A stretch of 64,000 nt of DNA from Escherichia phage EO1: the sequence record OQ223305.1, one strand, 5' to 3'. This document shows positions 42,599 through 43,453 of the stretch, one piece after another (positions within the stretch are counted from its first letter, which is position 1; each line of letters starts with the position of its first letter). The notes beneath the pieces were generated by a model, which did not search any database, was not told the origin of the DNA, and saw only the letters and a program-made list of their open reading frames with translations. A program made the position numbers and the translations under genes.

Positions 42599-43053
42599 TG
42601 GAATTTAAAGACTTTTCAACGGGTCTTTATGTAGCAGCTAAGTTTTCAGAATTAACACTTGATGCGCTGGAAGAACTTCAGCGCTCTTTACGTGTTCCTA
42701 ATCCAGTTCCTAGAGAAAAAATTCATTCGACCATATGTTATTCAAGAGTAAATGTTCCGTATGTTCCATCAAGCGGAAGTTTTGAAGTAGCTTCTTCTGG
42801 ACATTTAGAAGTATGGAAAACACAAGATGGATCGACTCTTGTACTTGTGCTAGATTCTGAATATCTGCGCTGTCGACACATGTATGCGCGGGCACTAGGT
42901 GCTACACATGATTTTGATGATTACACACCGCATATAACATTGTCTTATAATGTTGGACCCTTATCATTTAGCGGTGATGTACAAATTCCGGTCGTATTAG
43001 ATCGTGAATACAAAGAGCCTCTTAAACTCGATTGGGCAGATGATTTAAAATAA
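42598..43053 (+). CDS. 57B: Hypothetical protein gp57B
   Basis: 151 aa, synteny. Confidence 0.7.
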
Positions 43054-43065
43054 TTTCACAAAGTT

Positions 43066-43095
43066 GTTTACATGCTGATGAGGTAGTGATACTAT
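43066..43095 (+). promoter_or_regulatory. T4-type early promoter (GTTTAC-N18-TACTAT) with stem-loop
   Basis: aagttGTTTACa...tgaTACTAT; flanking stem tgatgag/ctcatca. Confidence 0.55.
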
Positions 43096-43125
43096 TATCT
43101 CATCAAAATTAATTGGGAAAATAAA

Positions 43126-43383
43126 ATGAAAACTTTCAAAGAGTTTGCTACAAAAACTACTATCACTGAATCTTCTCACGGTATGGAAGTAAAGCTTGGA
43201 ATGGCTTTAGCTGAAGCTGAGCGTCTTTTCTCTCGTATTAAAGAACTTGCTGCTGCAGTCGATCCTTCATCTTTTAAAGGAGACCAAACTAAAGTTAAAG
43301 CACTTTTAGCGTTATGCTCCGATGCAGGAGAAATTGCTAAAAATGGTTCTAAGATGAAGAAACGATTAGAAGATTTAAAATAA
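43126..43383 (+). CDS. Internal protein (IPI-like) with capsid targeting sequence
   Basis: 85 aa; N-terminus MKTFKEFATKTTITE resembles T4 CTS MKTYQEFIAE with an I-x-E gp21 cleavage motif; position of T4 ipI. Confidence 0.65.
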   Translation: MKTFKEFATKTTITESSHGMEVKLGMALAEAERLFSRIKELAAAVDPSSFKGDQTKVKALLALCSDAGEIAKNGSKMKKRLEDLK

Positions 43384-43395
43384 TTTCACAAAGTT

Positions 43396-43425
43396 GTTTA
43401 CATAGGGTTTTAGTTGTGATACTAT
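43396..43425 (+). promoter_or_regulatory. T4-type early promoter (GTTTAC-N18-TACTAT) with stem-loop
   Basis: Near-identical copy of the 43066 element; stem atagggt/accctat. Confidence 0.55.
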
Positions 43426-43453
43426 TACCCTATCAACTACTGAGGAGAATAAA

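Follow-up and report, generated by a model that had tools for sequence, protein, structure and literature searches.

An ip5 cassette between repeated early promoters at the internal protein locus of Escherichia phage EO1

In phage T4, the internal protein (IP) IPI, with its mature form IPI*, is an injected inhibitor of the GmrS/GmrD enzyme from E. coli CT596, and a 2025 study in Nature Communications reported that Ip1, Ip2 and Ip3 inhibit one different GmrSD each. In published outline, T4 IPI is made as a 95-residue precursor that loses 19 residues to give the mature 76-residue IPI*, a compact alpha/beta protein in which two beta-sheets are flanked by helices. The properties of the capsid-targeting sequence (CTS) and the rule for cleavage by gp21, after L/I-x-E, have been described (PMC9026906). 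The organization of IP loci is also known. As recounted in the passages of Arbiol et al. 2010 that concern IP genes, Repoila et al. 1994 described promoter plus stem-loop elements at two IP loci; these passages present the elements as T4 early promoters with weaker, AT-rich stem-loops that are possibly behind the plasticity of the loci. Arbiol et al. 2010 count more than 30 IP variants, and Comeau et al. 2014 make the same point on the promoter/stem-loop elements. A similar arrangement is found in the PeSL cassettes of RB49/phi1 and other T4-like phages (Arbiol et al. 2010; Comeau et al. 2014), where short promoter plus stem-loop repeats likewise flank small non-essential genes and the repeated units, located in hyperplastic regions, act as recombination linkers.

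Here we analyse such a locus in a 64,000-nucleotide stretch of Escherichia phage EO1 (OQ223305.1), which we refer to as the window. Its source is a Tequatrovirus (T4-like phage), and the block containing the locus is collinear with T4, in the order gene 1 (41631-42356), 57A (42356-42598), 57B, ip5 (43126-43383), tRNA.4, tRNA.3, tRNA.2 and tRNA genes. The ip5 gene takes the place that ipI has in T4, between 57B and tRNA.4, behind a conserved early promoter. 57B is the conserved gene that anchors the left side of the IP locus, and the gene on the right is annotated as tRNA.4 in RB51 and GiZh. Because 57B is an Acb1 homolog, the injected-protein cassette directly adjoins another counter-defence gene. 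Many database records label 57B "RNA ligase" or "hypothetical" despite its Acb1 match (2.6e-60). The features of the locus are collected in the table.

Features of the 57B-ip5-tRNA.4 interval, in positions of the window
Feature	Position	Strand	Description
57B (Acb1, anti-CBASS phosphodiesterase family)	42598-43053	+	Pfam Acb1 2.6e-60; ~100% identical to T4 57B
Repeat copy 1 (P1)	43038-43106	+	AT-rich upstream stretch overlapping the 57B stop; exact core 43042-43073
P1 boxes	-35 TTTACA 43067-43072; extended -10 (GTGA)TACTAT 43086-43095	+	Promoter layout
P1 inverted repeat	about 43076-43105	+	Around the -10 box; arms GATGAGG/TCTCATC
Ribosome-binding region of ip5	43107-43125	+	TTGGGAAAATAAA before ATG; 80% paralogous to the region ahead of tRNA.4
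ip5 propeptide, 15 codons	43126-43170	+	MKTFKEFATKTTITE; predicted capsid-targeting sequence; ends in gp21 motif I-x-E
Predicted mature Ip5 and stop codon	43171-43383	+	70 aa, 7.5 kDa, pI 9.2; last 12 nt in repeat copy 2
Repeat copy 2 (P2), promoter of tRNA.4	43368-43436	+	Exact core 43372-43403
P2 boxes	-35 43397-43402; -10 43420-43425	+	Promoter layout
P2 inverted repeat	43403-43432	+	Arms TAGGGT/ACCCTA, unlike the P1 arms
tRNA.4, conserved right anchor	43454-43639	+	61-aa predicted membrane protein; protein identical in T4; phrog_1692

The 85-residue open reading frame (ORF) that the original prediction had placed between the repeats, starting MKTFKEF, is there as claimed, and its sequence matches identify it as Ip5, a named T-even internal protein. 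Megablast with a 1101-nt query found the locus at 96.7-99.2% identity in ime09, KRT47, RB51, AR1 and others, the best being ime09 at 99.2%. Matching records annotate the gene as Ip5 or internal head protein, with the name Ip5 in RB51, RB32, RB14, T2 and ime09, and a note in the RB51 record gives it as similar to Ip5 of T6, T2, RB15 and RB70 and to RB69ORF127c. Over its full length the EO1 protein is 99% identical to T2 Ip5 and 92-95% identical to RB70 Ip5, and it matches phrog_3499, "internal head protein", across residues 1-85 (1.2e-49). Its homolog clusters comprise only T2 Ip5, RB70 Ip5 and a few unnamed ones. A total of 268 phage records contain the body of the gene, most of them at 95-99% identity, and ip5 carriers make up ~40% of sequenced Tequatrovirus-like genomes. 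The Ip5 gene of T2, T6, RB15, RB70, RB51 and RB32 likewise maps between 57B and tRNA.4 and has the same promoters on its two sides, and EO1 ip5 differs from these known genes in nothing of substance, only in a few substitutions. The matches to T2 and RB70 Ip5 and to phrog_3499 thus remove the novelty that had been implied for this protein; the Ip5 cassette is real, ordinary and already known, having first been reported in 1994 (Repoila et al.).

The N-terminus of Ip5 follows the CTS pattern MKT(F/Y)xEF with aromatic key residues at positions 4 and 7 (F4 and F7 in MKTFKEF), and its I13-T14-E15 aligns, as a motif only, with the ITE at residues 17-19 of T4 IPI. With this start and this gp21 motif, the gene indeed carries a capsid-targeting propeptide, as had been proposed. 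The gp21 rule as it operates in IPI predicts a cut after Glu15, leaving the mature protein listed in the table. We envisage that the 15-residue propeptide targets Ip5 to the prohead core, that gp21 would cut it there after Ile13-Thr14-Glu15, and that the basic, helical 70-residue product would be packaged with the DNA and injected, by extension from established T4 biology. The literature that we searched contained no virion proteomics report for Ip5.

The ORF had been put forward as IPI-like, a divergent IPI of altered specificity, and it does resemble T4 IPI in several respects: it occupies the same genomic slot with the same promoters before and after, its propeptide is homologous, and its mature product has much the same size and charge (70 residues and pI 9.2, compared with 76 residues and pI 9.0 for IPI*). 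The mature sequences, however, are unrelated. BLASTP aligned Ip5 with T4 IPI over residues 1-22 and nothing beyond, the propeptide (MKTFKEF(A/T)...ITE) being the only aligning part. AlphaFold2, from a 6-sequence alignment, placed helices at 17-44 and 54-84 and no strands, with a pLDDT of 69, and we conclude with moderate confidence that mature Ip5 is a helical hairpin, a predicted all-helical protein in contrast to the alpha/beta IPI*. A Pfam scan of Ip5 gave no hit above threshold, just noise below it (DUF7890 at 0.076, Paxillin at 0.16), and a sequence search of the PDB with mature Ip5 gave nothing below an E of 0.7. Foldseek searches with the Ip5 model against the PDB (E of at least 0.2) and the viral BFVD models (E of at least 0.14) yielded generic helical hairpins only, so the fold provides no functional lead. 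In an exhaustive HMMER search (phmmer) of 1.8 billion representatives, mature Ip5 found itself and a single relative, P0006, a 94-residue protein that is 48% identical and has its own CTS (MKTYTDFLAES...), and neither IPI nor a cellular homolog was among the matches. The Ip5 fold family therefore seems to be confined to phage internal proteins. On this evidence, which includes a fold prediction of moderate confidence, the proposed label of a divergent IPI does not hold; nor does the case that the original prediction had set against itself, a near-identical IPI ortholog, apply here, since Ip5 is not an ortholog of IPI and not a variant of it either.

What Ip5 does in the host must be judged against the same comparison. 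That it belongs to the IPI family and inhibits a GmrS/GmrD-type enzyme with altered specificity would be in keeping with its position at the ipI locus, its homologous propeptide and the fact that all three T4 internal proteins inhibit GmrSD variants, yet the similarity to IPI stops at residue 22, the predicted helical hairpin (pLDDT 69) is at odds with the IPI* fold, and the one distant relative recovered by HMMER is a CTS-bearing protein other than IPI. Furthermore, in the 2025 study, whose "ip5" may differ in sequence from EO1 ip5, none of ip4-10 reproducibly inhibited the GmrSD variants on the panel, and both T2 and T6 are restricted by the GmrSD enzymes from ECOR17 and ECOR21 although ip5 is carried by T2, in the records searched, and by T6, according to a database note. 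We therefore regard membership of the IPI family as very unlikely, and these two observations leave the anti-GmrSD analogy without direct support. A small, basic protein (pI 9.2) might otherwise serve mainly to fill the head or to aid its assembly, as a generic DNA-associated protein that lacks a specific host target, and indeed IPIII mutants are defective in head assembly and internal proteins are present at hundreds of copies per head (PMC9026906). However, the slot is empty in two related loci (L009 and L010) and holds unrelated proteins elsewhere, a pattern more in line with an accessory, host-specific role than with one that the structure requires, and all internal proteins of known function are anti-restriction factors; we consider a filler role unlikely. 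An anti-restriction role for Ip5 remains a reasonable analogy, and most likely the injected protein would neutralize a first-line host defence, in the way that Ip1, Ip2 and Ip3 act against three GmrSD enzymes.

Turning to the flanks of the gene, a direct repeat of about 33 bp had been predicted on either side of it. A repeat is present and non-random, since the predicted 33-mer, at up to 3 mismatches, has 2 matches in the window and none in 100 dinucleotide-preserving shuffles; of the two intervals given for it, the second (43368-43401) was off by 2-3 nt and the first was 1 nt too long. An exact copy of the 33-mer lies at 43371-43403, and the copy at 43041-43073 has one mismatch, in its first base (T for A). 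The longest exact direct repeat consists of the 32-nt cores of P1 and P2, at a spacing of 330, and from 43038 and 43368 onwards 35 of 36 nucleotides are identical. Similarity extends at 83% over the entire 69 nt of both units and continues at 80% for another 25 nt, which span the ribosome-binding site and ATGAAA. The stops of 57B (...ADDLK-stop) and ip5 (...LEDLK-stop) do share the DLK-stop context that had been pointed out for them, both being encoded by GATTTAAAATAA inside the repeat, and the 32-nt identity covers sense codons from these two unrelated genes.

We also considered whether the DLK-stop of Ip5 might have been copied from 57B. This is weakened by the diverged ip5 (75-80%) of locus L017, which ends in EDLK-stop and does not adjoin 57B, and also by the 63% of all IP ORFs that have a final Lys and a stop lying within AAAATAA, AAAATAG or AAAATGA. 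This frequency comes from the comparison loci described below, in which 33/52 unique CTS ORFs between 57B and tRNA.4 are of this kind, and several of the IP genes there begin at an ATGA that overlaps the preceding stop. The C-terminal K-stop thus looks like a common feature of cassette boundaries or of the region upstream of promoters, and not a property of one protein.

Both copies of the repeat contain a full T4-type early promoter, with a -35 TTTACA, a 17-nt spacer and a TG-extended -10 TACTAT, which bears out the suggestion that the repeats are promoter elements. In phage Lutter, promoters are annotated at both corresponding places, and P2 differs by 1 nt from the T4 promoter downstream of ipI. 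Inverted repeats surround the -10 boxes. As single-stranded DNA, P1 folds at -5.4 kcal/mol (z of -3.5) and P2 with a z of -2.0, and the mean z is -3.9 in 37 unique IP-locus promoters vs -1.2 in 7 other early-promoter-like sites of the window (Mann-Whitney p 0.016). Among the IP-locus promoters the sequences of the hairpin arms vary and the pairing is retained. Counting pairs about a fixed axis in 48 promoter segments gave 50% Watson-Crick pairs vs 20-36% in slid registers, which is weaker support for the hairpin than the per-sequence fold z because the stems lack one common register. The hairpins are not canonical intrinsic terminators; they have no T-run, and no terminator-like site (stem plus T-run) was found in 42300-44500.

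The base that follows the -35 box varies between phages: it gives TTTACAC in both copies of GiZh (L002, 3455-3830) and TTTACAT in both copies of the window and of L005, and in RB51 and Lutter C and T are mixed between the copies. In this small sample, the matching base hints at occasional gene conversion between promoter copies. One early-promoter-like site outside the IP loci, at 59540-59600 (+), has the architecture of the IP-locus promoters, with a perfect inverted repeat of 14-15 bp centred on the -10 box (AGTTGGCAAGGTTATGGTATAGTAATCTTGTCAACT), an RNA fold z of -7.4 and a DNA fold z of -3.3; it may mark another shuffling hot spot. We tentatively raise two ideas, with the odds against them: that Ip5 could be an injected inhibitor of another first-line defence or of an untried GmrSD clade, and that the -10 inverted repeat could be a functional signal in itself (for example by insulating cassettes, directing RNA processing or acting as a recombination hot spot) instead of a by-product.

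Comparison with T4 located the edges of the cassette. In a global alignment scored in 30-nt blocks, identity to T4 was 27-30/30 from 57A through P1, the ribosome-binding site and approximately the first 10 nt of the ORF, as far as 43134; it fell to background across about 43135-43382 and was back at 29-30/30 from 43399. The flanks are thus ~98-100% identical and the IP body alone has been replaced. T4 has the same two promoters around ipI with an exact repeat of only 22 nt, because IPI ends in ...NLL-stop and not in DLK-stop.

Relatives of EO1 provide the corresponding rearrangements. We compared 36 IMG/VR loci anchored on 57B (L005-L040), taking the interval up to tRNA.4, and found between 0 and 5 CTS-bearing ORFs, of many unrelated kinds, in this interval. 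Related phages have ip5 together with ip6, ip6 alone, another IP, or none at all, and in the first three of these groups the promoters are precisely the chimeras that crossovers between the repeats would yield. L005 and GiZh have the order 57B-P-ip5-P-ip6-P-tRNA.4, where P is a promoter unit, and P2 of the window corresponds to the left part of the L005 promoter between ip5 and ip6 followed by the right part of the one between ip6 and tRNA.4, the two L005 promoters having 21 nt (GTGATACTATTACCCTATCAA) in common. In L036, which contains only ip6, the single promoter between 57B and ip6 combines the end of 57B with the type of hairpin that normally follows ip5, and so its sequence is that of the product expected of a crossover inside the 32-36-nt repeat. 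The break-points against T4 at the repeat edge and these chimeric promoters in relatives together uphold the central claim of the original prediction, that the cassette has been exchanged by recombination between repeated promoters. Such junctions would look alike after a deletion and after an insertion, and equally alike after general recombination, a mini-circle or a site-specific route, so the sequences do not tell loss from gain or one mechanism from another.

Our overall reading, to which we assign a probability of roughly 0.85, is that ip5 sits in a hypervariable slot between 57B (acb1) and tRNA.4 whose content is swapped via paralogous promoter units of ~70-95 nt. The phage's own efficient homologous recombination, which needs <50 bp of homology, would cross over at the repeats and at the conserved propeptide codons, and such crossovers could delete, duplicate, insert or swap IP cassettes, either within a genome or between co-infecting phages. 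Every cassette would arrive with its own promoter. Early transcription would start from each of these promoters and, judging from T4 biology, late expression might be achieved by read-through from upstream.

The two copies could be alike merely as strong T4 early promoters that conform to one consensus, the repeat having nothing to do with recombination. Both do fit the early-promoter layout, another early-promoter-like site in the window, at 62485-62505, has 19/21 nt of the core in common with them, and the stop-bearing AT-rich AAAATAA that recurs after many IP genes could reflect a constraint on a promoter upstream element. However, with other promoters in the window reaching at most 19/21 nt of the core, no other promoter pair there comes close, and this pair is far more alike than a promoter consensus alone would give. 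The exact 32-nt identity moreover runs into the sense codons of two unrelated genes, the T4 homology break-points coincide with the repeat edge, and both L036 and the window carry the chimeric promoters predicted for crossovers, so that a likeness due to consensus alone appears most improbable. A further question is whether cassettes move by a dedicated route, through excised mini-circles or a hairpin-recognizing protein, and not by general homologous recombination. Mini-circles have been demonstrated for the PeSLs of RB49/phi1, and a hairpin-binding recombination protein has been proposed (Arbiol et al. 2010); the retention of the -10 inverted repeat while its arm sequences change would also suit such a route. 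The likeness to PeSLs is nevertheless partial. As in PeSL cassettes, the repeated units flank variable ORFs and the indel junctions fall inside the units, but PeSLs combine a sigma-70-consensus promoter with a GC-rich terminating stem-loop, whereas the IP promoter is of the T4 early type (9/12 to the sigma-70 consensus) and its AT-rich stem overlaps the -10 box and has no T-run. Indeed, in the terms of Arbiol et al. 2010, the T-even IP elements are analogous to PeSLs without being homologous to them. The locus has no associated recombinase gene, and crossover intervals of 32-36 nt and 21 nt of identity suit plain homologous recombination, which makes a dedicated route, in our estimate, rather unlikely.

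The surroundings of the locus contain other variable elements. The N-terminal half of tRNA.3 (43639-43836, +) forms a second mosaic patch relative to T4, with background identity over the first ~200 nt and recovery at 43837; related loci have one or the other of two N-terminal alleles (MYKVYADYQANPSEKP... or MNVEYYVYADYENNPSKDED...), and the C-terminus ...THTIVDEG is common to them. Among the tRNA genes, an ORF of 216 residues of the GIY-YIG type (44653-45303, +) corresponds to the T4 homing endonuclease segB; its counterpart is given as "truncated SegB-like" in RB51 and is absent at that spot in GiZh. The sole other CTS-bearing ORF in the window, at 51928-52401 (+), encodes 157 residues starting MKTYQEFITEA... 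and comes after lysozyme e (50948-51442) and a denV-like gene (51502-51918), a place that marks it as the second polymorphic IP locus. Its content and order differ from the ipIII-ipII-denV of T4. The late-promoter motif TATAAATA occurs 25 times in the whole window against 10 expected, a count that no shuffle reaches and an excess that a T4-type genome would be expected to show. Late read-through into 57A-57B-ip5 could come from the copy within gene 1, at 41993 (+).

The cassette at this locus is a rediscovery of what was described by Repoila et al. 1994 and Arbiol et al. 2010, to which the window adds a clean example and a comparative set of the chimeras expected from crossovers, and nothing more. 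Internal proteins, injected with the DNA, are the phage's earliest counter-defence, and the layout as cassettes flanked by promoters accounts for the way in which T4-like phages reshuffle these weapons and thereby alter their host range; the literature already makes both points. As a very common allele, Ip5 is a sensible candidate for anti-defence screens.
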